A stretch of DNA of 64,000 bases, from NCBI GenBank assembly GCA_963805625.1, contig CAWDVE010000017.1, positions 224,001 to 288,000 on the forward strand, read 5' to 3'. How positions within the stretch are numbered: the first letter of the stretch is position 1; every line of letters starts with the position of its first letter. Under the pieces are notes generated by a model. The model ran no database searches, was not told the DNA's origin, and saw only the letters and a list, made by a program, of their open reading frames with translations. The position numbers were made by a program, and so were the translations under genes. Below, in pieces: positions 28,620-44,021 of the stretch. This stretch comes from an uncultured Candidatus Rokubacteria bacterium (GTDB lineage: Bacteria; Methylomirabilota; Methylomirabilia; Rokubacteriales; DASRDR01).

Positions 28620-29576
28620 TCATCTTGCCTCGCGGACGTGCGGGCGGACGTCCGCGGCGAACCGCTCCATGGCCTCTATCATCCGAGGGGGCGACGGCAC
28701 GGAGAAGTCCAGGACGAAGTGCCGGGCGCCCGCCGCCACGTAGGCCTGGAGGTCCTCGATGAGCTGGGCGGGGGAGCCGGTCAGGGGGGCGCGGTCCCGC
28801 CCCTGGGCCTCCCGGAACGCGAACGGGGCCTTGAACGCGATGACGATCTCCGCCGGGTCGCGGCCAGCCGCGGACGCGAGCTCCCCGAGCCGCCGGGCGC
28901 GCGACGCCAGCTCATCGGGGTGGAGCATGACGGGCGGGCGGAGCCCGAGCGGGTGCCAGCCGTCGGCGACCTCCACGACGCGCCGGAGGGCGGCGTCGCT
29001 GTGCCCGCCGATCCAGATCGGGATGTGAGGCTGCTGGACCGGTTGCGGCCGTACGCCCCCGGCCTCGCGGACCCGCCAGAATCGCCCCTCGAATGTGACG
29101 CGCGGCCGGGTCCAGATCTCCCGCATGAGCCGGAGCGCCTCGACGGTGCGGGCGGCGCGGTCCTCGAAGGGCACGCCGAGGGCTTCGAACTCCTCCCGCC
29201 ACCAGCCGATGCCCGCGCCGAGGATCACGCGCCCGCCCGAGAGATAGTCCGCCGTGGCGAGCGCCCGCGCCGTGAACACGGGATTCCGGTAGGGGATGAC
29301 GAGGACGCTCGTGCCCACGCGGATCCGCCGGGTGACGCTGGCGACGTACGTCACCGCGGTGAGGGCTTCGAGCCAGGGCTCGTCCGGCCCCAGCGGGAAG
29401 GCGCCCGTGGCGGAGTAGGGATAGGCCGCCGTGCCGGCGACCGGGATGAGCATGCGGTCGGTGACGAACACCGAGTCGTAGCCGAGCGCCTCGGCGCGCC
29501 GCGCCAGCGCGGTGATCGCCCCGCGGTCCGCCAGCGCGCCGCGCCCCGTCAGCGAGAACCCAAACCTGATGGTCAT
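28620..29576 (-). CDS. LLM-class (F420-dependent-like) oxidoreductase
   Basis: AEALGYDSVFV, GTSVLVIPYRNP, SGGRVILGAGIGW, IPIWIGG. Confidence 0.9.
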   Translation of the reverse strand: MTIRFGFSLTGRGALADRGAITALARRAEALGYDSVFVTDRMLIPVAGTAAYPYSATGAFPLGPDEPWLEALTAVTYVASVTRRIRVGTSVLVIPYRNPVFTARALATADYLSGGRVILGAGIGWWREEFEALGVPFEDRAARTVEALRLMREIWTRPRVTFEGRFWRVREAGGVRPQPVQQPHIPIWIGGHSDAALRRVVEVADGWHPLGLRPPVMLHPDELASRARRLGELASAAGRDPAEIVIAFKAPFAFREAQGRDRAPLTGSPAQLIEDLQAYVAAGARHFVLDFSVPSPPRMIEAMERFAADVRPHVREAR

Positions 29577-29662
29577 CCCGTGAACCTCCGCTCCGACGGT
29601 TTTAGGGGACGCGTGTGACACTGTCAATCGCCGCTCCCGCTGACCGCGCGGATCTCTCAGCC

Positions 29663-29691
29663 TTGACAACCCCGCGTGGTGCCTAGATATT
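29663..29691 (+). promoter_or_regulatory. Putative sigma70 promoter for hrcA-grpE-dnaJ
   Basis: Perfect TTGACA followed by AT-rich TAGATATT. Confidence 0.45.
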
Positions 29692-29753
29692 TGCCATCAT
29701 GAGCCGCTTCAGCCAGATGCGACCGTCCATTCGCTGACACACACAGGAGTGCA

Positions 29754-30806
29754 ATGACCACCGGCGAGCTGAGCGAACGCGCACGGCAGGTCCTCCAGGC
29801 CCTGCTGTTCGAGTACACCGTCACCGCGGAGCCCGTCGGGTCCCGCCAGGTGGCGAAGAAGCACGCGCTCGGCCTCTCCCCGGCCACGATCCGGAACACG
29901 ATGGCCGATCTCGAGGAGATGGGCTACCTCGCCCAGCCGCACACCTCGGCGGGGCGCGTGCCGACGGACAAGGCCTACCGGTACTACGTCGACAGCCTGA
30001 TGGGCCGGACCGAGATCGGGCGTCCGGACGCGCATCGGCTTCAGCGCCAGGTCTCGGGCACGCGGAGCGAGATCGACGACCTCATGGAGGCGACGTCGGC
30101 CCAGCTCTCCGAGCTCTCCCATTACGCCGCCGTCATCCTGGCGCCACCGCTCCAGCACACCCGGCTCGAACGGGTCGACCTCATCCCGGTCGAGGGGGAC
30201 CGCACCATCGTCGTCCTGGCGACCGAGACGGGATGGGGGATGAGCCGCATTCTCGCGTTCGAGGAGCCGGTGCCGCGGAGCGAGGTGCGCGAGGTTGCGC
30301 GGCTCCTCACCGAGCGATACGCGGGGCTTACGTTCCAGGAGATCCGGAGCCGGGTGGCCGAGGCGGGCGCCCCACCCGAGGCCGAGCGCGCGCTTCGCGT
30401 CGCCGTCTACGTGGCGCGCAAGGTGTTCCAGTCCCTCTGGGACCGGAACCTCTACGTCGGCGGTGCGATGAACATGCTGGACCAGCCCGAGTTCGGCATC
30501 GGCACGATGCGGGCCCTCCTCAAGACGTTCGAGGAGAAGCGCCAGCTGATCGAGCTCCTGACGACGCGCGCGCAGACATCGGGCGACGTCCAGGTGGTGA
30601 TCGGATCGGAGATGCCCTTCCAGGAGATGCAGGAGACCAGCCTGGTGGCGGCCTCCTACCGGTTCCACGACCGCGTGCTGGGCGTCCTCGGCATCGTGGG
30701 CCCGCGGCGCATGCCCTACGCCAAGATCGTGCCGCTCGTCGAGTACACGGCGCGTTTGGTATCCAGGCGCCTCACGCGGCTCGGCGGCGTGTCGCCGCTC
30801 GGATAG
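29754..30806 (+). CDS. hrcA: Heat-inducible transcription repressor HrcA
   Basis: EPVGSR, SPATIRNTMADLE, PHTSAGRVPTDKAYRYYVD, GPRRMPY. Confidence 0.97.
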   Translation: MTTGELSERARQVLQALLFEYTVTAEPVGSRQVAKKHALGLSPATIRNTMADLEEMGYLAQPHTSAGRVPTDKAYRYYVDSLMGRTEIGRPDAHRLQRQVSGTRSEIDDLMEATSAQLSELSHYAAVILAPPLQHTRLERVDLIPVEGDRTIVVLATETGWGMSRILAFEEPVPRSEVREVARLLTERYAGLTFQEIRSRVAEAGAPPEAERALRVAVYVARKVFQSLWDRNLYVGGAMNMLDQPEFGIGTMRALLKTFEEKRQLIELLTTRAQTSGDVQVVIGSEMPFQEMQETSLVAASYRFHDRVLGVLGIVGPRRMPYAKIVPLVEYTARLVSRRLTRLGGVSPLG

Positions 30807-30809
30807 GAC

Positions 30810-31388
30810 ATGGCGAACGATCGGTGGCCGGGGGCGGGCGATGCCGCCCGGGGCGAGTGGGACGCCGAGACTGACGCGCCGGGCCGCGGGGAGGAGAGCC
30901 TCGAGGCGCTCCGGACCGAGCGGGACGCCCGGGCGCGGGAAGCGGCCGAGACGCAGGAGCGCTATCTCCGCACGCTCGCCGACTTCGAGAACTTCCGCCG
31001 GCGAACCGGCCGGGAGCGGGAGGACTGGCGGCGTCAGGCTCAGGAGATGCTGCTCCGGGAGATCCTGCCGGCCCTCGACAACTTCGACCGGGCGCTAGCC
31101 GTCCCCCCGGCGCCGGGCGCCGACCCGGCCTTCCGGACCGGTGTCGAGCTCATCCACCGGGACTTCCTGGCGGCGCTCGAGCGGCTGGGCGTGAGACCGT
31201 TCGTCGCCGTCGGCCAGCCCTTCGACCCGACGCGCCACGAGGCGGTGAGCCGTGTGGAGCGCGCCGACGTGGACGACCATACGGTCGTCGCGGAGCCCCT
31301 CCGCGGCTACCTGTTCCAGGAGCGGGTGCTCCGGCCCGCCCAGGTCGTCGTGGCCGTTCACCCGCCCGGCGCCGAGGGCGCGGCCTGA
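30810..31388 (+). CDS. grpE: Nucleotide exchange factor GrpE
   Basis: [27 protein letters not shown]...[10 protein letters not shown]. Confidence 0.96.
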
Positions 31389-31437
31389 CCGGTCACGGCC
31401 GGCGCTGCCCGGCCGCCGCGACGCTCCGCCGATAGCC

Positions 31438-32538
31438 ATGGCCCAGCGCGACTACTACGAGATCCTGGGCGTCCAGCGGGACGCGAGCGACGCGGAGATC
31501 AAGAAGGCGTTCCGGCAGCTCGCGCTCAAGCACCATCCCGATCGGAACCCGGGCGATGCCCACGCCGAGGAGCGGTTCAAGGTCATCAACGAGGCCTACG
31601 CGGTCCTCTCGGACGGGGACCGTCGCGCCCAGTACGACCGCTACGGCCGGGTCGACCTCCCGCCGGGCGGGGCGGACTTCGGCGGGCTCGAAGACCTCTT
31701 CGGGGACCTCTTCGAGGGTTTCTTCGGCGGCCAGCGCGGAGGGCGACGCGGTCGCGCGCGGTCGGGAGACGACCTCCGCTACGACCTCGAGATCACGCTC
31801 GAAGAGGCGGCGCAGGGGCTCGAGACGCGGCTACAGATCCCGCGGCTCGAGGTCTGCGAGACCTGCCACGGGAGCGGGGCGGAGCCGGGATCGGGGCGGA
31901 CCCAGTGCCCCAACTGCAAGGGGCGCGGCCAGCTGCGCTACCAGCAGGGCTTTCTCACGGTCGCCCGTACCTGTGCCCAGTGCGGCGGCGAGGGCCAGAT
32001 CATCAAGAGCCCATGCAAGACCTGCTCAGGCGAGGGCCGCGTGGCGCAGGAGCGGACCCTCAAGGTGCGCATCCCGCCCGGTGTCGACGAGGGCGCCCAG
32101 ATGCGCATCGCGGGCGAGGGGGAAGGGGGCCTGGCCGGCGGCCCGGCGGGCGATCTCTATGTCGTCCTCCACGTGCGCCAGCACGCCTTCTTCACGCGCC
32201 AGGGCAACGAGCTCTACTGTGCGCTCCCGCTCACCTTCGCCCAGGCTGCCCTCGGGGCGGAGGTGGACGTGCCGATCCTGAATGGCGTCGCGCAGCTCAA
32301 GGTGCCGGCCGGCAGCCAGAACGGCGACGTGCTGCGGCTGCGCGGAAAGGGAATGCCCGGCCTCCACGGGCGCGGCCGCGGGGACGCGTGCTACACCGTG
32401 GTGGTGGAGGTTCCGCGGAAGCTCACCGGGAAGCAGCGGGAGCTTCTCGAGGAGTACCAGCGCATCTCCTCCGGCGAGGAGCAGGGCCCGCTCGTCGGCG
32501 GCTTCCTCGAATCGCTGAAGAAGCTCTTCGGCGGCTGA
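31438..32538 (+). CDS. dnaJ: Chaperone DnaJ
   Basis: J-domain HPD, G/F region, four CxxCxGxG motifs. Confidence 0.97.
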
Positions 32539-32689
32539 GCGGAAACGGCCCATCGGCCGTGGACGGCCGGTCGCCCTGCAAACGCCGCCTCGGTGCCGGC
32601 GGTGGTGGATCTCGACCGGAGCGGGCTCGGCGAGGTCGCCGCCGTCTGTGGAGGAACGTGCGTCGCGCCGCCAAGCCCTGCTCGAGGCC

Positions 32690-32719
32690 TTGACAGTTGG
32701 CGCGATGCCTTCGTAGCCT
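32690..32719 (+). promoter_or_regulatory. Putative sigma70 promoter at the start of the island
   Basis: TTGACA-N18-TAGCCT. Confidence 0.4.
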
Positions 32720-32767
32720 GCGGACTGTGAGCACGACAACTACCGGTGGCAACTTCTAGAGGTGCGC

Positions 32768-33463
32768 ATGCCCCCGGCGATGATCAGCGTCGTCATTCCC
32801 GTGTACAACGCCGAGTCGTACCTGGCCCAGGCGCTGGAGAGCGTGGCGCGTCAGACATGCACGACGATCGAGATCCTGGTCATAGACGACGGCTCGACAG
32901 ACCGCAGCGAAGAGGTAGCACAAGGCTATCCAGATTCGCGCATCCGCGTTGTCCGTCAACCGAACGGCGGCCCTGCCGCCGCCCGGAATCACGGCGTCCG
33001 CCTTGCACGTGGCGACTTTCTGGCCTTCCTGGACGCCGATGACCTCTGGGAGCCGCTCAAGCTGGAAGTGCAGTTGGAGGCACTGCGGGCGCGTCCGGAC
33101 GCGGCGATGGCGTTCGGGGAGCTGATTCAGGTTCGGGACGCAGTCGATCCGCGGACCGGTGAGCTCACCCCGTGCGGCGACGCGATGCGCGCACATTCGG
33201 TGGGGACGCTTCTCATTGGCGCCGCGGACTTCCACCGGGTCGGATACTTCGACACGCGATGGCGGGTGGGTGAGTTCGTCGACTGGTACGCGCGCGCGCG
33301 AGACCTGGGCCTCCAAGAGGTAATGGTGCCCCGGGTGCTTCTCAAACGGCGCCTGCACGCTGACAACCTCGGTGTGCGTGAACGCGCGGCGCGGCAGGAG
33401 TACGCGCGGGTGATCGCTTCCGCCGTGGTGCGCCGGCGCCATCCCGCCGCTTCCGGTGGTTGA
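32768..33463 (+). CDS. Glycosyltransferase family 2
   Basis: ISVVIPVYNA, IDDGSTD, AARNHG, FLDADD. Confidence 0.92.
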   Translation: MPPAMISVVIPVYNAESYLAQALESVARQTCTTIEILVIDDGSTDRSEEVAQGYPDSRIRVVRQPNGGPAAARNHGVRLARGDFLAFLDADDLWEPLKLEVQLEALRARPDAAMAFGELIQVRDAVDPRTGELTPCGDAMRAHSVGTLLIGAADFHRVGYFDTRWRVGEFVDWYARARDLGLQEVMVPRVLLKRRLHADNLGVRERAARQEYARVIASAVVRRRHPAASGG

Positions 33464-33496
33464 CTCTCGAACACGCCGTCTTCCGGGGCTTGCTCA

Positions 33497-34351
33497 TTGA
33501 CATTCTCTCGCCCTCCCGCGAGAGTGCCGCTAGCCACCCCGGCTTCCGGCGGCCTCGAGCCGGCCCGACCGGTCGGATCGGGGGTAAGGGTTGGATCGCC
33601 ATGGCTGCGCGGCTCGCTCGTGACGCTCGCGCTCTTCGGCGCCGTGGTGATGATGTGGGTCAGCCTGGCCAGGCCACTGACGCCCAGCCGGGCGTGCCTG
33701 GCGCTCCTCGCGGCACTCTTCCTGGCGTCGGCGCTGCCAGTCTTGGTGCTGCGCTGGGTCCAGCCTCCGACCACGGCGTTCATGATCTGGACGCGTCGTC
33801 GACGCCGCGGCCCGGAGACGTCGGTCCATCATGAATGGGTGTCCTACGAGGCCGTGTCTCCATCCATGCGGCTCGCCGCGATCGGCGCCGAGGATGCTCA
33901 CTTCGTGTCACACGCCGGCTTCGATTGGCCCAGCATCCGACGGGCTGTCCGATACAACCGTGAAGGCGGTCCACGGCGCGGCGCGAGCACGATCACTCAG
34001 CAGGTCGCCAAGAACCTGTTTCTCTGGCCGGGGCGTTCCTATCTCCGCAAGGGCCTGGAAGCGTACTTCACGGTGCTCATCGAGGCCATGTGGCCGAAGC
34101 GCCGGATTCTCGAGGTATACCTCAACATCGCGCAGTTCGGGCCGGACGTCTTTGGGGTCGGTGCGGCCTCGCGCGTGCTTCTCGGCAAGGAGGTCTCGGA
34201 CCTCGGCCCCCAAAACGCAGCGCTGCTGGCGGCCGCGCTTCCGAGCCCCGGCCGGTACGACGTTCGTCGTCCGTCCCCGGCCGTCCGCCTTCGCCAGGTG
34301 ATGATCATGGACAGCGTTCGGCGCCTGGACCTGGACCCCGATCACCTCTGA
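33497..34351 (+). CDS. mtgA: Monofunctional peptidoglycan transglycosylase (GT51)
   Basis: AEDAHF..HAGFD, GASTITQQVAKNLFL, RKGLEA, KRRILEVYLN; start uncertain. Confidence 0.9.
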   Translation: MTFSRPPARVPLATPASGGLEPARPVGSGVRVGSPWLRGSLVTLALFGAVVMMWVSLARPLTPSRACLALLAALFLASALPVLVLRWVQPPTTAFMIWTRRRRRGPETSVHHEWVSYEAVSPSMRLAAIGAEDAHFVSHAGFDWPSIRRAVRYNREGGPRRGASTITQQVAKNLFLWPGRSYLRKGLEAYFTVLIEAMWPKRRILEVYLNIAQFGPDVFGVGAASRVLLGKEVSDLGPQNAALLAAALPSPGRYDVRRPSPAVRLRQVMIMDSVRRLDLDPDHL

Positions 34352-34385
34352 GCCGCGGCCAGAGTGCCACCCAGAGAGGATAGAG

Positions 34386-34832
34386 ATGGACACTCGCTAC
34401 GGTGTCGACGAAAGCCGGGTCGTGTACGAGCTTCTTGAGAGGGAGATCGTCGTCGTCAACCTCGACACCGGGCACTACTACATCTTGGACGACACGGCGG
34501 CCGTGATCTGGAGGGAGCTCGTGGACGGGTCCACGCCGACCGAGGTGGTGCACGCGCTGAGCGTTCGGCATCCGGCCGACGGTGAGACGATCCGAGATGC
34601 GGTCCGGAGCTTCGTCGAGCAACTCACCGGGGAAGGGCTTCTCACTGCGTCGGACCGCGCGGCTCCCCGGCAGGCCGAGGCCGGCGCTGCGCAGATGCTG
34701 GATCTCGGCCCGAGCTTCATGCCCCCGATCCTAAATCGCTACACCGACATGGCGAAGCTGATCCAGATGGATCCGATCCACGACTTCGACGAGACCGGCT
34801 GGCCACGCCGCCCTATCGCCCGCGATCGATGA
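34386..34832 (+). CDS. PqqD/RRE-family protein with a C-terminal leader-like tail
   Basis: EIVVVNLDTGHYYILDDTAAVIWREL...FVEQLTGEGLL (RRE pattern), then FMPPILNRYTDM...DPIHDFDETGWP. Confidence 0.85.
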   Translation: MDTRYGVDESRVVYELLEREIVVVNLDTGHYYILDDTAAVIWRELVDGSTPTEVVHALSVRHPADGETIRDAVRSFVEQLTGEGLLTASDRAAPRQAEAGAAQMLDLGPSFMPPILNRYTDMAKLIQMDPIHDFDETGWPRRPIARDR

Positions 34833-35884
34833 CCGGCCGACCTTTGGTCGAGGAGGCGCTGGAGCGCTTCTTCGACGAGGCCGAGGCGTCCTTCGAAAAG
34901 GCGGTCAACCGCTCCGCGGAAAGGGTAGAGCGCCACGTGCAGGTGGCTGGTCGTCCGATGCGCCTTCAGTTCGCCGGCGCGACACTGGCGGACGCGATGA
35001 TGCCCGCGCTGAGGCATCTCGAGGTCCCGGCTGCGACCCCGTCGCTGACGGCGTTCATCTGGGACCTGCGCTCCACCGAGGTTGTCCTTGGTCCTCCGCC
35101 ATGGGCGGCGTTGCCGTACTTCGAACGCGGCAACATGCGGGGCTTCCGGGATGACCGCTTTGTCCTCGTCTACGATCGTCGCACGCGCGCCTTCAGCGCC
35201 GTCGACAATCTCCAGGGCCGAGCCGTTCAGTGGATGGACGACGCGGCATGTGTGCCGTTCTCCGAGCGCGCCGCACCCCTCCGGCACGTCCTCCAGGGCT
35301 GGCTCCAGCGGGAGGGGCTGTTCGTCGCCCATGCATCGGCAGTCGGTCGGGCCTCCGGTGGGGTCGCGGTGAGTGGCCGGACCGGCTCCGGCAAGTCGAC
35401 GACGGCGGCGCTGTGCTTGGGGTCCGACCTTGGATATCTCGGGGACGACAACATCCTGATCTCGGCCGGCGGTGAGCCGTGCGCGTACAGCCTCTACGGA
35501 GTGGCGAAGCTCAGCCGCGCAACGCTGGCGTGGTTCCCCGAGTTGTCCGCCGCCGTGGCCAATCCGGAACGGCTCGATGTCGAGAAGGCGCTGATCTTTC
35601 TTGGAGACGCCTATCGGCCACGGATGCTGCGGGAGTTTCCGCTCCGTGCAATCCTCCTTCCGCGCGTCGTCGACGGGCGCGAAACGCGCCTCCGGCAGGT
35701 GTCGGGGAACACCGCCTTCCGGACGCTGGCCCCGGATACCCTCTTGACGGTCCTGGGAAACCCCACGCTGACGGCGCGAGGCCTGCGACGGTTGGTCGAC
35801 GCTCTGCCATGCTACGAGCTTACGCTGGGCCACGACCTCGCCCGGATCCCTGGTGTCATTGACGATCTGCTCTCGCATGCTTGA
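34829..35884 (+). CDS. HPr kinase-related P-loop kinase
   Basis: HASAV, GRTGSGKST (Walker A), YLGDDNILI; ATGA overlap with the RRE gene. Confidence 0.82.
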   Translation: MTGRPLVEEALERFFDEAEASFEKAVNRSAERVERHVQVAGRPMRLQFAGATLADAMMPALRHLEVPAATPSLTAFIWDLRSTEVVLGPPPWAALPYFERGNMRGFRDDRFVLVYDRRTRAFSAVDNLQGRAVQWMDDAACVPFSERAAPLRHVLQGWLQREGLFVAHASAVGRASGGVAVSGRTGSGKSTTAALCLGSDLGYLGDDNILISAGGEPCAYSLYGVAKLSRATLAWFPELSAAVANPERLDVEKALIFLGDAYRPRMLREFPLRAILLPRVVDGRETRLRQVSGNTAFRTLAPDTLLTVLGNPTLTARGLRRLVDALPCYELTLGHDLARIPGVIDDLLSHA

Positions 35885-35901
35885 GGCGGCGCGCAGCGAG
35901 C

Positions 35902-36732
35902 ATGACTGATCCGTTCAGCGCTCTCGATCCACGGCCGACCACCCGTCAGGAGCTGATGCTGACCGCGGCCCTGCGGCAGGGTGAGCCAGCGCTGGCCGCG
36001 TGGGAGGCGTGGGTCTCCGATCTAGACCCCGAACGGCTCGAGGAGCAGCTCGAGCCGGATTCCCAGTGGCTCATGCCTCTCATCTACTGGAATCTACGTC
36101 GGGACGTGGAGCACCCCGTGCTCGCTCGTTGCCGGAACGTCTACCTTCACAACTGGTACAAGAACAATGCGATGCTCCATGCGCTGGCGTCGGCGCTCGG
36201 GTCGGGGGGACTGGCCGCGGTCAAGCCGGTGCTGCTGAAGGGGGCGGCCATGGCCGTCCGCTACTACGACACCCCCGGCGCCAGGCCCATCGCGACCATC
36301 GACGCGTGGATCCCCTTCGCGGCCGATGGCGCGTCCAGGTGGCTGGACCCGCTGCGCGACATGCTCACCCTCCACGACGTGCCCTTCGCCGCGGGACCTA
36401 CGGGCGGCCTCCTGAACCGGGCGGACACCGTAACCTTCATGGGCGCGACGTGCACCGTGATGAGCGCCGCCGACCAACTTCTCCACATCTGCTTTCATCG
36501 CCGGTCCTGGGATCCCCGAACCCGGTTGGTCTGGGTGGCCGACGCGGTGCAGGTGCTTCGGCGGTCGCCCGATCTGGACTGGGACACCGCCCTGGCGGCC
36601 GCTTCCCAGCTCGGGCTGGATCAGACGCTGTCAGCCACGCTCGACTACCTCGGTCGCTTCGGTGTGCCCGTCAGACTTCGGTCAGCGACGCGCATGCGCC
36701 CACGTCGCGCCGTCGGCCGGTCTGGCCCATGA
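35902..36732 (+). CDS. Nucleotidyltransferase family protein (NTP_transf_5-like), degenerate active site
   Basis: LLKGAAMA..YY....RP, DQLLHIC.H, WVAD; ATID in place of DxD. Confidence 0.75.
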   Translation: MTDPFSALDPRPTTRQELMLTAALRQGEPALAAWEAWVSDLDPERLEEQLEPDSQWLMPLIYWNLRRDVEHPVLARCRNVYLHNWYKNNAMLHALASALGSGGLAAVKPVLLKGAAMAVRYYDTPGARPIATIDAWIPFAADGASRWLDPLRDMLTLHDVPFAAGPTGGLLNRADTVTFMGATCTVMSAADQLLHICFHRRSWDPRTRLVWVADAVQVLRRSPDLDWDTALAAASQLGLDQTLSATLDYLGRFGVPVRLRSATRMRPRRAVGRSGP

Positions 36733-37409
36733 GCACGATCGTCGGGGTCATGGATCGTCCCGGCTTCCAGGCGAACACCGACAACCTCGTGCTGGTCGAG
36801 CCTGCGCGCTCCCGACTGACGTGGATTCCTCGCGACCTCTGGTGCGAGACGCTCCGAGCGCGGATCAATCGCGCCTTCAGTCGCGGCGGCCACGAGCTGC
36901 TCGTCGCTGCGCTGGGGGCGCACGGCTTCCACGTCACGGCCAGTCTCGTGCTGTCCCGGGAGGCCACGGAGGAGGCGCTCGCTGATGCCGTGGTGGTGGT
37001 CCCTGTGCCCTGCCGGATGACCTTCTCCTATCCCCTGACGCCGTGCGCGCGCATCGAGGATGGCAGCAAGCAAGTGGTCTTCAACCCGCCGGCCGAGGTT
37101 CTGCGGGGCGAGCGGATTCACCAATGGATGGGCGCCCGCGGCACGGATCTTCACCGGATCGAGAGGCAGAAGATCCTCGTGCGCCGCTTGCTGGAGAAGG
37201 GATTCGAGTTTCGACGAGCCCTGGCCCGTCCCGCCTGGTACTCCATCAGCGGGGCGGACTGTCTGCCCGATCTGGCGCGGGTGCGGCCTGACTGGCAGTT
37301 CGAGACCATCACTGAGCTCTCGCCCGTCTCCATCGAGGGACAGATGGTCTTGGTGAGGGGCGGGCGGGACCGCCACGACCACGACCCCCCCGGGCCGTCG
37401 CAGCCTTGA
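36729..37409 (+). CDS. LCP (LytR-CpsA-Psr)-like protein, minimal, no obvious TM anchor
   Basis: NTDNLVLV, IPRDLW, RINRAFSRGG, DLHRIERQ; ATGA overlap. Confidence 0.7.
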   Translation: MSTIVGVMDRPGFQANTDNLVLVEPARSRLTWIPRDLWCETLRARINRAFSRGGHELLVAALGAHGFHVTASLVLSREATEEALADAVVVVPVPCRMTFSYPLTPCARIEDGSKQVVFNPPAEVLRGERIHQWMGARGTDLHRIERQKILVRRLLEKGFEFRRALARPAWYSISGADCLPDLARVRPDWQFETITELSPVSIEGQMVLVRGGRDRHDHDPPGPSQP

Positions 37410-39163
37410 CTCCTCGATTCGTGGACTGCTGGCCGACCGCCGAGCAGCGGCTCCTCCTGCGCGCCACGCTGCTCGAGGGAACGTCAGCCGTCACCGCCTG
37501 GCGCGAGTGGAGGCAGCGAGTCGACCTTGACGGGATCGACGAGGCATCCGGCCGCCTGCTGCCGCAGCTTGCCCGCAACCTCTCGCTGCTCGGGGTGGAG
37601 GATCCGATTCTGCCGCGGCTTCGCGGTGTGCGGCGCCGCGTGTGGACCCAGAACACGGAGCGCCTCATCGAGACCGCCTCCCTGGTGCGGATGCTCGAGG
37701 AGGCCGGCGTCGCCACGATGGTCCTGAAGGGCGCCGCGCTGGCGACCCTCTACTACCCGGACCGCGGGCTCCGCCCGATGACGGACACCGATGTGCTCGT
37801 GCCGACCCGGCAAGTGCGGCCCGTGATGGCGCTCCTCATGGAAAGGGGCTGGACCCCCGTGGGATGGATCCCGGAGGCGCGGCGTCCCGAGCTGACTCTC
37901 GGCGTGCATCATGCGCACGAGTTCCGGCACCCCAGCGGCCAGAGTCTGGATCTGCACTGGCACGTCCTGTGGGAGTGCGGCGCGCCGGATGCCGACGACG
38001 ACTTCTGGGCCGCGGCCGTCCCCCTCGACCTGCGCGGCACTCTCACGCGGACCCTTTGCCCGACGGACCAGTTGCTGCATGTATGCGTTCACGGCGCGCA
38101 CTGGAGCGGGGCCCCCTCCCTCCGATGGGCTGCGGATGCGCACATGATCCTTCAGCGCCAGGGGATCAGCATCGACTGGGACCGACTGGTGGACCAGTCG
38201 TGTCGCCGCGGCTTGGTGCTGCCGATGCGCGCGACGCTGTCGCTGCTCGCGGAGATTCTGGAGGCCCCGGTGCCGCCGGGCGTCCTGGCGGCCCTTCGCG
38301 GGATCGCGGTGCCGTGGACTCAGTGCGTCGAGTATGCGACGGGGACCCGCGCGGCCCGACGACCGAGCATCGCGCTGCTCAATCGCGCGTGCCACCACCA
38401 TCGGCTGTCCGTGGGACAGACATTCGCCCGTTCTCTGTTCGGGTTCCCGCGATACCTCCGTCTGAGCTACGAGCAGGAGAGCTTCTGGGGGCTCGCCAGC
38501 GTGATGAGGAGAAAGATTCGACGACGAATCGCTGCTCGGCTGGGCCGTCCCGATCGCCCGGTTCCTCAACCCGAGGCCCAGGATGTGGGGCGCTCATCGG
38601 GCTCCGGTCAGGAATCAGCACCGTCATGGCTCGACAAGTCCCCCTGGATGCCCGTGGATGCGCCCATTCGATCCATTCCGTCGGCGCGCAGCCGAGTCCT
38701 CTTACTGGAGGTCATCGCGCAGTTCGACGTCGAGGCGACCCCGCGCTACCGACCCGTTCCGACCCGGCGCGGCACGACCACCTGGTGCAACATCTTCGTC
38801 TGGGACGTCACTCGCGCTCTAGGCGCAGAGGTTCCGCACTGCGTGGACGAGGCCGGGCGGTCGGTTCCGGTGGGGCAGGGGAGGGAGCTGACGGCCAACG
38901 GCACGCTGCGGTGGCTGAACACGCACGGCTTGGCCGACGGGTGGCGCGAGGAGGACGCGGCCGGCGCGGTGCGGGCTGCCGAGGCAGGGTCACCTGCCCT
39001 GGCAATCTGGCACAATCCGTTCGGCCACGGTCATGTGGGGATCGTCGTTCCGTGTCAGGACGACGGCGTCCACATCGCTCAGGCGGGCACCGTCTGCTTC
39101 AGCAGCCGGCCGCTGGCTCACGGTTTCGGGGACCGGCCAGCGCGGTTCTTCGTGCACGCCTGA
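37406..39163 (+). CDS. Nucleotidyltransferase (NTP_transf_5-like) fused to a C-terminal Cys-His papain/CHAP-like domain
   Basis: VLKGAALA..YY...LRPMTDTDVLV, DLHW; C-terminal TWCNIFV...GHGHVGIV...IAQAG. Confidence 0.78.
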   Translation: MTPRFVDCWPTAEQRLLLRATLLEGTSAVTAWREWRQRVDLDGIDEASGRLLPQLARNLSLLGVEDPILPRLRGVRRRVWTQNTERLIETASLVRMLEEAGVATMVLKGAALATLYYPDRGLRPMTDTDVLVPTRQVRPVMALLMERGWTPVGWIPEARRPELTLGVHHAHEFRHPSGQSLDLHWHVLWECGAPDADDDFWAAAVPLDLRGTLTRTLCPTDQLLHVCVHGAHWSGAPSLRWAADAHMILQRQGISIDWDRLVDQSCRRGLVLPMRATLSLLAEILEAPVPPGVLAALRGIAVPWTQCVEYATGTRAARRPSIALLNRACHHHRLSVGQTFARSLFGFPRYLRLSYEQESFWGLASVMRRKIRRRIAARLGRPDRPVPQPEAQDVGRSSGSGQESAPSWLDKSPWMPVDAPIRSIPSARSRVLLLEVIAQFDVEATPRYRPVPTRRGTTTWCNIFVWDVTRALGAEVPHCVDEAGRSVPVGQGRELTANGTLRWLNTHGLADGWREEDAAGAVRAAEAGSPALAIWHNPFGHGHVGIVVPCQDDGVHIAQAGTVCFSSRPLAHGFGDRPARFFVHA

Positions 39164-39267
39164 GGGGCCTCCGGCCGTTGCGCGTGTCGTCGAGGTAGCA
39201 TGCAACATCCTGCTCTCGAGCGGCACCTTCCTGCAGGCCCCCTCCTGCCGGCAAAAGGAGCCGGGTG

Positions 39268-40233
39268 ATGTCATCGCTCGTCGCCGAAGTCGACGAGAGG
39301 CCGGAGTCTCATCGCGGGCTCCTGGCGCGAATCGATCTTGTCGTGCTCGTCCATCGCGACGCACCGCACGTCGTGATGCGGTCGCTGCGCGCGCTGGCCG
39401 TTTCGATGGGAACGAACTGGACCGGCCGGATCGCGCTCGTACAGAACGCGTCTCCGGCAGCCACCGTCATGGCCGCGCAGTCCGAGGTCGTGCGTTCGTT
39501 TCCATCCGCCCGCATGGTCTCCGTCTCGTCGCGACGGAACCTCGGATACGCGGCTGGCGTGAATCTCGGCGTGGCGCACACGACCGCGCCCTACGTCGGC
39601 GTCTTCAATCCCGACGGCGTCACCCGGCCGGAGACCGTGGCGCGACTTGCGGGCGCGCTGGAACACGGTCGTGACGCCTTCATGGCTGGCGCGCGGATTG
39701 TGTCGACGGTAGTCTTGGAAGAGCCGCCTGCTTGTGCCCCGCGACGGGTTGCCTGGCTCCCTGGAGCGGCGATGCTGTTCCGACGAGAGTGGTTCCTCGA
39801 CATCGGCGGTTTCGATCCCGGCTTCTTCATGTACTGCGAGGACGTCGACCTTTCTCGGCGGGCACGCGCCCGCGGGTGGAAACTGGTGGTCGCACCCGAT
39901 GCCGTGTTCTTCCACGCGCGTGAGTTCGGCCAGCTCGAGTCACTTCGCCGGATTCGGATGTGGACCGTCTCCAACACGAGCCTCGTGTACCAGTACGGCA
40001 CGCCGCGGTGGCGAGCAATGGCTCGGCTGGCTCGTCAACGAGCCGGATGGTTCCGCAACCTTGCCCGCAAGCGTCGAGGCTGGACGCTTGCGGGCGCGCT
40101 CGTCGGGTCGGCAGCCTGGCTGGTGTCGATTCCCCGGCTGGAGCATCGCCGGCGCCACCCGTGGGACGGAGCCGCGTTGTCGGACTGGCTCGCGAGGGCG
40201 ACCCGTCGTGCCCAGATCACTGATCTCCAGTGA
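39268..40233 (+). CDS. Glycosyltransferase family 2 (WbbL-like)
   Basis: NLGYAAGVNLG, NPD, GGFDPGFFMYCEDVDLSRR; AAGGAG SD. Confidence 0.88.
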   Translation: MSSLVAEVDERPESHRGLLARIDLVVLVHRDAPHVVMRSLRALAVSMGTNWTGRIALVQNASPAATVMAAQSEVVRSFPSARMVSVSSRRNLGYAAGVNLGVAHTTAPYVGVFNPDGVTRPETVARLAGALEHGRDAFMAGARIVSTVVLEEPPACAPRRVAWLPGAAMLFRREWFLDIGGFDPGFFMYCEDVDLSRRARARGWKLVVAPDAVFFHAREFGQLESLRRIRMWTVSNTSLVYQYGTPRWRAMARLARQRAGWFRNLARKRRGWTLAGALVGSAAWLVSIPRLEHRRRHPWDGAALSDWLARATRRAQITDLQ

Positions 40234-40539
40234 GGGCGTGCCTTGACCGCCCCAGTCTTCCGTCCGCGTCGAGCGAGCATGGCCGTTCACCGCCGCTGGG
40301 CGTACCCGCATGATGCTGGCACGGGCCGGACCGGGACGCTCACCGGCGGACGGACTTTGAACATCACCATCGTGACCATCGTGCAGACAGGGCAATCTCA
40401 ACCTCGATGCCCGGAACCAGCACGCCCTGGAAGCCGAGCATGGCACCCATCGCCATGACCGTCGGAAATGCAATCGGCAGCGCCTAGATGGCCGGGGCGC
40501 CGAGCTGTGCGCCCCACAGTCCGACCGCGACCATCGCCA

Positions 40540-40670
40540 ATACGCAGGCTGACGAACTGTGCCGGAGACAGTGCGGCGTGAAGTGCGTCGGTAGTTCCGG
40601 AGCCTGAGAACCGCGTGAGAAGGTGCGCTGAATCACGCCCGGATGGAACGGCTCGCCAGTGCCGCCCGAG
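40540..40670 (-). pseudogene. Tyrosine recombinase/integrase C-terminal remnant
   Basis: GEPFHPGVIQRTF...LPTHFTPHCLRHS (HxLRH box); no intact ORF. Confidence 0.6.
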
Positions 40671-40888
40671 ACGCCAGACCCTGGCGTAAGCTCCACAGCC
40701 AGCGGGCGTCGTCGCCATAGGCATCCGGACCGAGTCGGCACGAAAAGCTCGGCACGTGAGCGGCGAGCCGTGCAGCGAGCAGGCCCATGCCCTCTTCGGG
40801 TGGCGCCGCGGCGGCCTGGCCGATGGCGAACATTCCGTCTGGCGGGCATGAGCGGAACAGGGTTCCGCGCCACGCATCCAGCGCGGTC

Positions 40889-41143
40889 GGGATACGCGCC
40901 GAGGTGGTCGCCGAGCGCGCCGTGAAGGAGATGCGGCGCTACCTCGCGGCCGGCGTGCCGGTGGGTCCGCATCTCGCGGACCAGCTTCTCCTGCCGATGG
41001 CGCTGGCCGGGCACGGCGCGTTCCGGACCAGCGGGCTCTCTTCCCACAGCCGGACGAACCTCGCCGTGATCCGGATGTTCTCGCCGACCCGGATCTCGGT
41101 CGCTGGCGATCGGGACGACGTCCTCGTCGAGTTCGGTGGCTGA
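40889..41143 (+). pseudogene. rtcA: RNA 3'-terminal phosphate cyclase, C-terminal fragment
   Basis: GIRAEVVAERAVKEMRRYLA.GVPVGPHLADQLLLPMALAG...HSRTNLAVI; N-terminal part missing. Confidence 0.8.
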
Positions 41144-41159
41144 TCACGGTCACGCCACG

Positions 41160-42194
41160 TCAATACCCTCGATCCCGCTCGAAGAGATTGCGCAGCGGGG
41201 TGCCGGCCAGGTAGCGCGTGAGGTTGTCGCAGAAGAGGTCGACCACACGCTCGTTCTCGTCGAGGGCCGTGCTCATGCTGTGGGGTGTGACGAGCACGTT
41301 GGGCAGGTCCCAGAGCGGGCTGTCGGGGGGCAGGGGCTCGACGGTGAAGACGTCCAGGGCGGCACCGTCGAGGCGGCCGTTGCGAAGCGCCCGCACCAGT
41401 GCGGTCTCGTCCACGACCTGGCCGCGGGCCACGTTGATCAGCACGGCCCCGGGCTTCATCATGGCTAGCTCCGCCTCGCCGATCAGCTCCGTCGTGTCCT
41501 GGGTGAGGGGTACCGTCAGGGCGACGTAGTCGCTCTCGGCGAGCAGCCTCGGAAGCCCGTCCGGCGGATAGATCTCGCCCAGCCCGGGGCTCGCCGCCGC
41601 CGGCGTGCGCCGCGTCGCCACCACGCGCACGCCGAGGGCCCGCGCCAGGCGCTTCACCTCGTCTCCGACGCGACCCAGACCCACGACGCCCAGGGTCTTC
41701 CCGGGCAGGGTGTCCAGGGCAAACCGCTCCCATCGGTGCGCGCGCTGGTCGGCGAGGATCCGGGGCAGGCGCTTGGCGAAGTACAGCATTGCGAAGAGGA
41801 CGAACTCGGCCAGGGCGCGCGCGTGGATGCCGGCGGCGTTGGTGACGAGGACGTCCGCGTGGCCGAGATTCATGGCGTGAACGAATGCCGCGACGCCGGA
41901 GCTGGAGAATTGGATCCAGCGCAGGCGGGGAGCGCGTCGCGGCAGATCGTCGCTGCGAGGCCGGTAGGCATCGAACATCACCTCGGCCTCGGCGACGAGG
42001 CGGTCCCACTCGGCGTCCTGGTCCGGCGACCGCTTCATCGGGGCGGTGTGGTCGCCCGGGTAGCGCGGCTGGCCCACGAGGTCCGCCCGGTAAGTCACGG
42101 CGATCCTGAGATCGACCGACCGGATGCGGTCGACGAGATGCGGCTCGAGGAACGATGCGATCAACACGCGCACAGGCGGCGCGGGGACAGTCAT
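41160..42194 (-). CDS. D-2-hydroxyacid dehydrogenase
   Basis: GLGRVG, INVARGQVVDE, LDVFTVEPL, VTPHS. Confidence 0.92.
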   Translation of the reverse strand: MTVPAPPVRVLIASFLEPHLVDRIRSVDLRIAVTYRADLVGQPRYPGDHTAPMKRSPDQDAEWDRLVAEAEVMFDAYRPRSDDLPRRAPRLRWIQFSSSGVAAFVHAMNLGHADVLVTNAAGIHARALAEFVLFAMLYFAKRLPRILADQRAHRWERFALDTLPGKTLGVVGLGRVGDEVKRLARALGVRVVATRRTPAAASPGLGEIYPPDGLPRLLAESDYVALTVPLTQDTTELIGEAELAMMKPGAVLINVARGQVVDETALVRALRNGRLDGAALDVFTVEPLPPDSPLWDLPNVLVTPHSMSTALDENERVVDLFCDNLTRYLAGTPLRNLFERDRGY

Positions 42195-42307
42195 GTCGAA
42201 GCTCCCGGTCTGATGGTGATCGTTCAGCCTCCGTAGCCCAGCTCGCGCAACGGTCGGCGGCGTACCGTTGGCCCTCGGCCGTGGCTTGACGCGCGGGGAG
42301 CCTGAGC

Positions 42308-42772
42308 TCAGCGGATCACGCTGAGATGCCCGTCCTGCTCGAGAAGCACGTAGCGGAGGCCTCGCACCGTCACGATGCCTTCCCGGCGGAGCGCCGCATG
42401 GAACTCCGAGAGGCTCAGCCGTTCGCGCGCGAGGTTCTCCTGCAGGATCCGGCCGTGGCGGACGAGGATCGTCGGCACGTGCTCGACCACCCGCCGGACG
42501 GGCTTCGAGCGGAACGTCAGCCACGCCACACCGGCGTTCAACGCGAGGATGGTCGTGGCGCCGATGAGCCCGCCTCCCAGTGAGTTGTCGTTCCCGATGA
42601 GGGCGTTCTGCACCACGTTGCTGATGACGAGGAGAACGACGAGGTCGAAGGGCGTCATCTGTCCGAGCTGGCGCTTGCCCACGAGCCGGAAGGCCGCCAG
42701 CAGGAACACGTAGACGACGACCGACCGGACGACCTTCTCGACGAGCGGAATGTCGGGAAGCCAGAGGTGCAC
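42308..42772 (-). CDS. DUF421/YetF family membrane protein
   Basis: GKRQLGQMTPFDLV, PTILVRHG, LEQDGHLSVI; AAGGAGG SD. Confidence 0.88.
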   Translation of the reverse strand: MHLWLPDIPLVEKVVRSVVVYVFLLAAFRLVGKRQLGQMTPFDLVVLLVISNVVQNALIGNDNSLGGGLIGATTILALNAGVAWLTFRSKPVRRVVEHVPTILVRHGRILQENLARERLSLSEFHAALRREGIVTVRGLRYVLLEQDGHLSVIR

Positions 42773-42946
42773 GGGGTCCTCCTTCGCGTCACCTCCTCCG
42801 CATCGATGGACGCGGGGTGACGCGAGTCCATCGTACGGGACCCCGGAGCGGACACGAAGGTTGTCGCGCTCCGCCGCCGTGACCATCGCGGTGAGAGGGT
42901 CCGGGCGCTCCCCGCCGCCGGGCCGGCCCGCGCCGGCGAGGCCGCG

Positions 42947-43372
42947 CTACAGGAGCCGCGCGTGGAGCGAGATCTGGACGCCCGCCAGCGCCACCGAGAC
43001 GGGGCAGTTCTTCTTGGCCGTTTCGGCGTGCTCGGCGAACGCCGGGGCGGCGAGCCCCGGCACCTCGGCCTCGGTGTCGAGCTCGATCCGGGTCAGGCGG
43101 AAGTTCCCGCCCACGTTCTCGAGGTGCACCCGCGCGGTGGTGTGGATGCGCCGGGGCGTGAGCCCGGCCCCGCTCAGGCCGGCCGACAGCGCCATGGAGA
43201 AGCATCCCGCGTGGGCCGCGCCGATCAGCTCCTCCGGGTTGGTGCCGGCGCCGTCCTCGAACCGCGAGCGGAACGAGTAGGGGCCTTCGAACGCGCCGCT
43301 GCCGAGCTTGACCCGGCCCTTGCCTTCGCGAAGCGTGCCTTCCCAGACTGCCTCCGCATTCCGTACCGTCAT
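42947..43372 (-). CDS. osmC: OsmC family peroxiredoxin
   Basis: GTNPEELIGAAHAGCFSMAL, AKKNCPVS. Confidence 0.94.
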   Translation of the reverse strand: MTVRNAEAVWEGTLREGKGRVKLGSGAFEGPYSFRSRFEDGAGTNPEELIGAAHAGCFSMALSAGLSGAGLTPRRIHTTARVHLENVGGNFRLTRIELDTEAEVPGLAAPAFAEHAETAKKNCPVSVALAGVQISLHARLL

Positions 43373-43665
43373 CGGGATCCTCCCGGCGGCCCCGGCGGAG
43401 CCTCGAGGTCCGCGTACTCTGGGTGCCGCTTCATGAACGCTTGCACGAACGGACAGAGGGGACGCACCAGGAGCCGCCGCCGGCGGGCATCGTCGAGGGC
43501 AGCGCGGGCCAGCGCATCCGCGATCCCCCGGCCCCGCAGCTCGGGCGGCACCTCGGTGTGGATCAGCGTCACGTGGCCCGCGGCCTCACGATACGTGAGC
43601 ATCCCCGTGTGACCGTCGACGGTCACCTCGAAGCGGCGCCCGTCGTCGTTCCGTGTCACGTCCAT
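43369..43665 (-). CDS. YjdJ-like small GNAT acetyltransferase
   Basis: HTEVPPELRGRGIA, PLCPFV. Confidence 0.88.
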   Translation of the reverse strand: MDVTRNDDGRRFEVTVDGHTGMLTYREAAGHVTLIHTEVPPELRGRGIADALARAALDDARRRRLLVRPLCPFVQAFMKRHPEYADLEAPPGPPGGSR

Positions 43666-43693
43666 CGGCACGCTCCCTGTCGCCCGCCGGTGA

Positions 43694-43921
43694 TCAGACC
43701 CGTTCCCACGACAGGGCGCCCGACGGACATTGCTCGACCTGCACGACGATCCGGTCGCTGGACGCGCCTCCGAGATCGATCCACGGCCGCTCCCCGGGCC
43801 GGAACACCTCGGCGAGCCCGCGCACGCACACGCCGGAGTGCGCGCAGAGGTCCGGACGCCAGATCACGCGGATCTCGCCATTCTCGTAGGCTCGCGTCAC
43901 TCCGCGCGTGTCGTCGACCAT
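43694..43921 (-). CDS. YjdI-like divergent 4Fe-4S mono-cluster protein
   Basis: CAHSGVCV...VF....RPWI...CPSGAL; AGGAGG SD. Confidence 0.88.
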   Translation of the reverse strand: MVDDTRGVTRAYENGEIRVIWRPDLCAHSGVCVRGLAEVFRPGERPWIDLGGASSDRIVVQVEQCPSGALSWERV

Positions 43922-44021
43922 GTCGCCCTCCTGCGGTGCCACTTCGTCCACCGTACCAGGAGCGCGGCGAGGCCTCAACTCGCGTGGCTCGCTGGCGCGA
44001 GCCCATCCATAATGGGGAGCC

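Follow-up and report, generated by a model that had tools for sequence, protein, structure and literature searches.

A widespread RRE family with a leader-like motif in its own chain and a conserved DP..GWP tail

Introduction

RRE-guided genome mining assumes that the precursor peptide is separate from the RRE. The locus described here raises the question of whether an RRE protein can carry its own leader and, if so, what the rest of its tail is for. The locus lies in the window, by which we mean the whole stretch of 64,000 nucleotides that was analysed (an uncultured Candidatus Rokubacteria bacterium, assembly GCA_963805625.1, contig CAWDVE010000017.1, positions 224,001 to 288,000 of the forward strand). 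We compare it with the linear polyphosphorylated peptides (LPP, lppAKBSDN) of Bacillota reported by Popov et al. 2026 (PMC13381572) and with phospho-lasso systems.

Results

The gene of interest and the parts of its product are as follows (positions in the window).

34376 to 34380, plus strand: Shine-Dalgarno-like GAGGA, read from the sequence itself, 5 bases upstream of the RRE-gene ATG
34386 to 34832, plus strand: RRE-tail gene, 148 aa, ATG start
34386 to 34649, plus strand: RRE (PqqD) domain, residues 1-88; PF05402 above cut-off, model resembling 5V1V/5V1U
34599 to 34601, plus strand: Ala72, in helix 3, where LppB has Asp70 (alignment to 9X8Z, co-variation)
34650 to 34715, plus strand: variable Ala/Pro-rich linker, residues 89-110; entropy 3.48 bits, low pLDDT
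34716 to 34760, plus strand: putative built-in leader-like segment F111-L125 (FxxPxL, then YxDMxxL), from the model and co-variation
34770 to 34805, plus strand: D129-P140 segment, DPIHDFDETGWP; entropy 0.59 bits, starting at motif position 19
34770 to 34772, plus strand: Asp129, candidate acceptor, equivalent to the motif position of LppA Ser3

The first-pass annotation, made from the sequence alone, had described an RRE of ~90 aa, an Ala-rich linker and a motif-bearing tail, and this layout was borne out by Pfam, by the composition of the linker and by the family alignment. PF05402 covered residues 20-86 with 58.8 bits against a Pfam cut-off of 23.4, and the NCBIfam lasso PqqD models scored below their cut-offs. 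The linker stretch 88-110 holds 7 Ala among its 23 residues. Residues 111-140 make up the tail, FMPPILNRYTDMAKLIQMDPIHDFDETGWP, and the last 8 residues that follow it, RRPIARDR, which the annotation had omitted, are not conserved. Searched alone, the tail gave no match in the PDB and none in Pfam (0/35 of the members tried). An internal start at Met104, which would yield a separate 45-aa precursor, was rejected because it has no ribosome-binding site and the Met is not conserved.

The RRE gene belongs to a same-strand run in the order GT2, MtgA, RRE, kinase, NTP_transf_5, LCP-like, NTP_transf_5-CHAP-like and GT2, with overlapping start and stop codons between the genes from the RRE gene to the second NTP_transf_5 gene.

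32762 to 33463, plus strand: upstream GT2 glycosyltransferase (NCBIfam/Pfam domain match)
33497 to 34351, plus strand: MtgA, monofunctional peptidoglycan transglycosylase (TIGR02070 above cut-off)
34829 to 35884, plus strand: HPr-kinase-like kinase, start overlapping the RRE stop (TIGR04355 below cut-off)
35881 to 36732, plus strand: NTP_transf_5 protein 1, probable start ATG 35902, first Asp of the DxD missing
36729 to 37409, plus strand: LytR-CpsA-Psr-like (LCP-like) protein, a weak match (PF03816, E 0.002, below cut-off)
37406 to 39163, plus strand: NTP_transf_5 protein 2, fused to a CHAP-like domain, DxD intact
39265 to 40233, plus strand: downstream GT2 glycosyltransferase (Pfam domain match)

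The counterpart of NTP_transf_5 protein 1 in locus L055 likewise lacks the first Asp of the DxD, and protein 1 may be a non-catalytic partner. The sub-type of cassette seen in the window (33497-39163) and in loci L055 and L002 is tied to cell-wall genes through MtgA, the LCP-like protein and the CHAP-like domain. MtgA immediately precedes the RRE gene in L055 and lies one gene earlier in L002. The LCP-like protein, in which an obvious membrane anchor is absent, is 76% identical to the L055 copy and 61% identical to the L002 copy, and the CHAP-bearing nucleotidyltransferase is 83% identical to its L055 counterpart. An Amidase_2 gene is found near the cassette in L001/L055 and L002.

A profile search of 1.84 billion representatives, at a threshold of E up to 1e-30, returned 242 clusters at 50% identity, with members seen in Rokubacteria, Anaerolineales, Vicinamibacterales, Acidimicrobiia, Actinomycetes and one cyanobacterium. 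We consider this a real and widespread family in which the cis leader is well supported and the proposed chemistry tentative. Locus L001, from a rokubacterial genome of the same genus, has the same cassette, and in the cultured Crinalium epipsammum PCC 9333 the cassette is on a plasmid. That plasmid (locus L199, NC_019735.1, 5896-17248) is mobilizable, and a group II intron adjoins the cassette, whose RRE-tail protein is WP_232229449.1 and whose kinase is WP_015180011.1.

Conservation was analysed in an alignment of 131 single-domain proteins (the window protein, 10 other matches and 120 of the 150 matches listed), which omits 29 long or fused proteins and one near-copy. Among these members, fetched with a profile that contains the tail, mean column entropy was 2.19 bits in the RRE, 3.48 bits in the linker, 1.87 bits at residues 111-118, 1.14 bits at 119-128 and 0.59 bits at 129-140, and the DPIH..GWP segment is the best conserved part of the family. 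Conservation of the tail among homologs, which the first-pass annotation had named as a check on its reading, is therefore beyond chance. P114, D129, W139 and P140 are invariant, and Asp occupies motif position 19 (numbered from the aromatic residue of the leader motif) in 131/131 members of the unfiltered alignment, an invariance to which the searches themselves contributed in part, since the profiles or patterns that fetched most members contained the tail. Because retrieval favoured the tail, the family was also entered through the kinase: all 8 loci reached by strong kinase matches (E 7e-58 or better) outside the kinase alignment carry a tail close by, the Asp of which is spaced as in the other members. 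One of the 8 has a broken RRE, and in two P4 of the leader motif is Leu. In 201 genomes of the source organism's own phylum, an RRE-tail gene lies within ~5 kb of 22/22 strong kinase matches, most of which had built the profile.

The tails fall into two types, DP[IV]H..GWP and DPP..PW, and the source genome has one of each. Its second cassette (C24:97400-103700) combines a YxxP/DPP-type tail with a kinase, a nucleotidyltransferase, two GT2 genes, a GT4 gene and a radical SAM gene. In proteins P0024, P0030 and P0061 a SAM methyltransferase is fused in front of the RRE-tail unit.

Modelling of the protein alone, a further check put forward with the annotation, ordered the FxxPxL segment as a strand: in the AlphaFold2 model, which may echo solved RRE-leader complexes, residues 111-120 reach pLDDT 93 and include a strand at 117-119, linker residues 91-110 have 57-69, and residues 121-140, with a predicted helix at 123-126, have only 50-58. 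The model shows the winged-helix fold of RREs, and its top Foldseek matches were the TbiB1-leader complexes 5V1V/5V1U. The protein shares its fold and sequence family with TbiB1 (5V1U/5V1V), TfuB1 (6JX3), LppB (9X8Z) and PbaB1 (9X90); these bind their leaders in trans, whereas here the leader-like segment is in the same chain.

Co-variation between motif and pocket is consistent with the model. Asp70 of LppB, the bonding partner of the leader Tyr (PMC13381572), aligns to Ala72 of the RRE-tail protein. Across 206 members (dereplicated at 80% from 231), Asp72 is present in 14/18 Tyr-motif members and 0/181 Phe-motif members (Tyr with another residue in 4, Phe with another residue in 181; 7 others). 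The pairing has a Fisher p of 3e-18, the best of 972 column-residue tests, and in the DP[IV]H type alone (Tyr+Asp 5, Tyr+other 4, Phe+Asp 0, Phe+other 181) a p of 6e-8, the best of 963; the p value overstates the case, and the pairing arose more than once, because the motif label changes 7 times, with 2 changes forced by starred branches, on a poorly resolved member tree (9/203 inner branches starred). Sixteen proteins contain two or three RREs (40 units in all; nine of the proteins are related), and in these the pocket residue agrees with the motif that follows its own unit, with Tyr+Asp in 9 units, Trp+Asp in 1, Phe+other in 22 and Phe+Asp in 0; the remaining units are Tyr+other (2) or other or unaligned (6).

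The lasso cluster trait of a [Y/W]xxPxL motif bound by the RRE thus appears here as an FxxPxL variant, predicted from the model and the co-variation to bind in cis, and the same pocket residue tracks the aromatic residue of the motif in lasso RRE-leader complexes and in this family. A second lasso trait, Thr at leader position -2, is absent: motif position 16 is Leu in 175 and Ile in 24 of the 206 members. Ile(-2) is tolerated in Bsf (PMC10368454). Overall, the earlier proposal that a built-in leader docks in its own RRE is supported by the ordered strand, by the pocket co-variation and by the lack of a separate precursor ORF in the interval 29000-44000. Docking of the FxxPxL segment in the RRE of its own unit is very probable on this evidence, and a domain-swapped dimer may stand in for strict cis docking.

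The annotation had also remarked that no separate short precursor ORF is evident, which holds for the interval 29000-44000 of the window, where no plus-strand small ORF besides the tail itself carries the motif and no conserved small ORF was found near the cassette. At E 0.01, the tail profile matched only the RRE-tail protein in the source genome. No stand-alone tail peptide family emerged from the 120 short matches listed out of 150; these resemble fragments and fall into clusters of 1-3 members, judged with the sequences of the ones on long contigs and of the ones without a clear RRE remnant. Apparent natural split forms in loci L005, L054, L117 and L195, with a break between RRE and tail, resemble single stops or frameshifts in which the tail lacks its own start.

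Maturation genes were also sought. Lasso B2, with the genome's own B2 as query, matched in 0/104 related loci, and an AsnB-like match occurred in 2/104; no AsnB-like macrolactam cyclase is present among the ORFs of the window operon. Recurring neighbours of the related loci include no conserved peptidase cluster, and general domain matches, as distinct from an SpI-specific profile, revealed no SpI-like leader peptidase among operon ORFs or recurring neighbour clusters. An MsbA-like exporter is absent from the window locus. Among the 34 of 104 related loci that extend at least 3 kb on both sides (long loci), a kinase is present in 33/34, GT2 in 32/34, the nucleotidyltransferase in 24/34 and an ABC exporter in 7/34.

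In a set of loci from the same class (L173-L177 and L184; 5/7 weak kinase matches plus L184), we observed a sister cassette with a tail-less RRE, a distant HPr-kinase-like kinase, a nucleotidyltransferase or GT2, and ABC exporters. Its separate precursors, between one and five in number, are very short and have Ser at motif position 20-22; no lasso cyclase or B2 matched in these loci. The sister cassette may represent a further phospho-peptide family not described before. Fused and split forms were mutually exclusive in the loci examined. Homology of the sister-cassette precursors to the leader here beyond YxxPxL was not significant (p 0.087).

What, then, is the DP..GWP segment for? The annotation had listed Thr, Tyr, His and Asp as possible acceptors, of which only Asp129 occurs throughout, and the other three are replaceable in the family alignment. 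In the 197 members of the DP[IV]H type, Phe takes the place of Tyr119 in 33, only 84 have Thr at position 137, and His132 is kept in 187 and replaced by Arg or Trp in 10; the nine DPP-type members have no His at the equivalent position. Position 120 is Thr/Ser in 172 of the 197 and Asp, Glu or Asn in 16, and it is Arg in 7/9 DPP-type members. Trp139 is kept in 197/197. Phospho-Ser3 of LppA falls at motif position 19 (PMC13381572) and Ser3 of BsfA at position 20 (PMC10368454). A Ser is found at positions 17-22 in 16/17 sister-cassette precursors, and Ser/Thr at these positions in only 6/206 fused tails, which have Asp at 19; 9/206 fused tails have no Ser/Thr anywhere at positions 7-31.

Exactly one DP motif per chain was found in 16/16 multi-RRE proteins, which have a leader-like strand after most units, and the motif is internal in the five natural RRE3-kinase fusions found. 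Because the segment occurs once per chain and is internal in kinase fusions, a released peptide is disfavoured; the arrangement is what one would expect of a single functional site per system. The idea that the tail is the core of a cleaved, released RiPP product is therefore unlikely, with no conserved peptidase and with the segment inside kinase fusions. In a model of one fusion, P0028 (fold input of 5 fusion rows and 63 unpaired rows), the domains and all three leader-like strands were ordered, and the DP..GWP segment had pLDDT <50 and was not placed on the kinase. The segment is thus disordered in both models, that of the RRE-tail protein alone and that of the fusion.

The window kinase has intact His168, Lys189, Asp206 and Asp207, and kinases of this family keep the full His-Lys-Asp-Asp set of Ser kinases. 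The HprK-related models TIGR04352 and TIGR04355 gave 21.7 and 36.8 bits, below their 200-bit threshold, and a sequence search of the PDB with the window kinase gave no match. Kinases of fused-type loci form one clade (48 rows, FastTree 99). P143, E146, W158, S221, Y223 and K227 are present in fused-type kinases and absent from split and lasso kinases, and are candidates for tail-contact sites. The kinase part of P0028 resembles ATP-dependent PEP carboxykinase over ~410 columns, with a TM of about 0.4 by target, a stronger match than HPr kinase structures. The DxD is intact in 23/27 neighbouring nucleotidyltransferase rows caught by pattern, and recurring neighbours include the glycan-decorating enzymes GT2, GT4, epimerase, sulfotransferase and FkbM methyltransferase.

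Discussion

The LPP systems share with the present cassette a discrete lasso-type RRE, a kinase of the HprK-like type, an NTP_transf_5 enzyme, the lack of a cyclase and a glycosyltransferase-rich setting, and motif position 19 is the modified residue in LPP and the candidate Asp129 here. LPP differs in having a separate precursor (YxxPxV..S) with a variable core and phospho-Ser3, whereas in the present family the RRE chain itself includes leader and core-equivalent, both nearly invariant, mostly as FxxP with Asp in place of Ser at position 19. In LPP an SpI leader peptidase accompanies an MsbA-like exporter; the present cassette has no peptidase, and an exporter occurs in only 7/34 long loci. 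The phospho-lasso systems (paeninodin; pseudomycoidin PsmK/PsmN, PMC6993621; Bsf, PMC10368454), in the corresponding accounts, resemble the cassette in the His-Lys-Asp-Asp kinase, the DxD nucleotidyltransferase and YxxPxL-type recognition, with an RRE that in their case boosts the kinase, and differ from it in having a macrolactam cyclase, a B2 peptidase, a separate precursor and a Ser acceptor. Searches of the open-access literature gave no account of a natural cis-leader RRE or of these motifs; the family could be among those listed in the supplements of RRE-Finder (Figs S6, S7, data sets).

We tentatively favour the explanation that the self-leadered RRE is a reusable carrier phosphorylated on Asp129. 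One chain holds the RRE, linker, leader-like motif and DP[IV]H..GWP segment beside a dedicated kinase clade, and FxxPxL is predicted with high confidence to occupy the RRE cleft of its unit. The RRE-leader unit would then probably engage the kinase, as the RRE BsfB1 boosts the kinase BsfK (PMC10368454). At the weak link of the scheme, the kinase would phosphorylate the Asp129 carboxylate, at the site of phospho-Ser in related precursors. A DxD nucleotidyltransferase could cap the phosphate with a sugar in the manner of PsmN, which requires its DxD to add hexose onto phosphate (PMC6993621); GT2/GT4 enzymes could lengthen that sugar, and the labile acyl-phosphate bond could release or pass on the phospho-glycan without a peptidase, perhaps via the LCP-like protein to the cell wall. 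This extended version, a soluble phospho-glycan carrier with an aspartyl phosphate at Asp-Pro, a chain built by PsmN-like, GT2 and GT4 enzymes and release without proteolysis, is more doubtful than phosphorylation of a carrier as such. Covalent loading, release and recycling of the tail are what we infer from the once-per-chain, internal and peptidase-free pattern of the DP segment. Carrier or scaffold peptides exist in pearlin TglA and LysW, and fused enzyme-precursors in the borosins; the likeness, to a reusable scaffold or to a fused substrate, is one of analogy only, with different enzymes.

Asp129 is put forward as the acceptor because it is invariant and its position equals that of the LppA phospho-Ser, a register that may be coincidence, since acceptors in relatives lie at positions 19-22 and, in paeninodin, at the C-terminus (PMC9266682). 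Phosphorylation of an Asp is made plausible by related kinases whose acceptor can be phosphate itself, an oxyanion (PMC9266682), and by the PEP carboxykinase-like fold. It is not reported for characterised kinases of this kind in the sections consulted of PMC13381572, PMC10368454 and PMC9266682, and LppK rejected both Thr and Tyr as substitutes for Ser3 (PMC13381572), which counts against it, as does the full Ser-kinase residue set. Against the carrier reading also count the unplaced DP..GWP segment in the P0028 fusion model and the labile nature of acyl phosphates.

A reading nearly as likely as this carrier, and itself only tentative, is that the protein is an adaptor: the leader still fills the RRE, the unmodified DPIH..GWP motif docks or activates, with Asp mimicking phospho-Ser, and holds kinase, nucleotidyltransferase and glycosyltransferases together, and the kinase acts on a sugar, glycan or small molecule. 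A segment conserved yet disordered alone is what binding motifs look like, and its single occurrence per chain, its lack of Ser, the glycan-decorating neighbours and a kinase fold resembling that of a small-molecule kinase all agree with docking. However, the motif is kept in RRE-kinase fusions, where a kinase tether is less needed, and the fusion model leaves it undocked; an acidic residue imitating phospho-Ser at the acceptor site would more probably be inhibitory than activating; and the characterised relatives, in the sections consulted of PMC13381572, PMC9266682 and PMC10368454, all phosphorylate the leader-bearing peptide itself. Modification of the tail elsewhere, on Thr120, Thr137, His132, Tyr119 or Trp139, with the kinase or, directly, a GT2 as the enzyme, is improbable. 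The frequency of Thr/Ser120, His132 and Trp139 in the DP[IV]H type and the hydroxyl-kinase residues of the kinase speak for it; against it stand the acidic, Asn and Arg replacements at position 120, the DPP type without His and the tails without any Ser/Thr at positions 7-31. Moreover, position 120 precedes the predicted helix 123-126, and Thr, Ser, Asp and Asn are ordinary helix caps, which counts against Thr120 as an acceptor.

Two further readings are less probable again. The tail could be a single-use fused precursor, modified and then cut by a housekeeping protease into a small invariant product, as in cofactor RiPPs, where invariant cores occur, or borosins. The C-terminal position of the tail in most members and the ABC exporters of some long loci would suit this, but lasso B2 and a conserved peptidase cluster are missing from the related loci, Leu/Ile stands at position 16 instead of the leader Thr, all five fusions have the motif inside the chain, and no stand-alone tail peptide family was seen among the short matches listed. 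The least probable is that the tail is a placeholder whose only role is to maintain the fold of the RRE and close it off until displaced by the true substrate, which would be encoded at another site. Without their peptide, certain RREs are insoluble or marginally stable (PMC13381572), and the source genome holds YxxP lasso precursors that would need exclusion; yet this would leave the top conservation of the unbound DPIH..GWP segment unexplained, the tail profile finds no second protein in the genome at E 0.01, and no conserved small ORF accompanies the cassette.

For genome mining, this means that one class of 'orphan' RREs is explained by a large family whose leader is in cis. With its contrast between Tyr-Asp and Phe-small pairs, the family adds a third state to the code for leader discrimination that Popov et al. 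set out. An Asp129 acceptor would amount to a new kind of kinase chemistry and a novel means of priming glycans; should the carrier reading be right, a RiPP apparatus would have been repurposed as a protein-primed assembly line for glycans. The cassette could also bear on the role of NTP_transf_5 enzymes such as LppN.

Two other loci of the source genome may be mentioned. A lasso cluster (B1, B2, cyclase, kinase) at C16:411482-416326 includes two YxxPxL precursor-like genes that run into a shared C-terminal domain of ~110 aa, which we take to resemble an intramolecular chaperone domain. After the RRE-like domain encoded at C21:340439-341197, the same frame continues with a twin-arginine-like stretch and a Cys-rich region.
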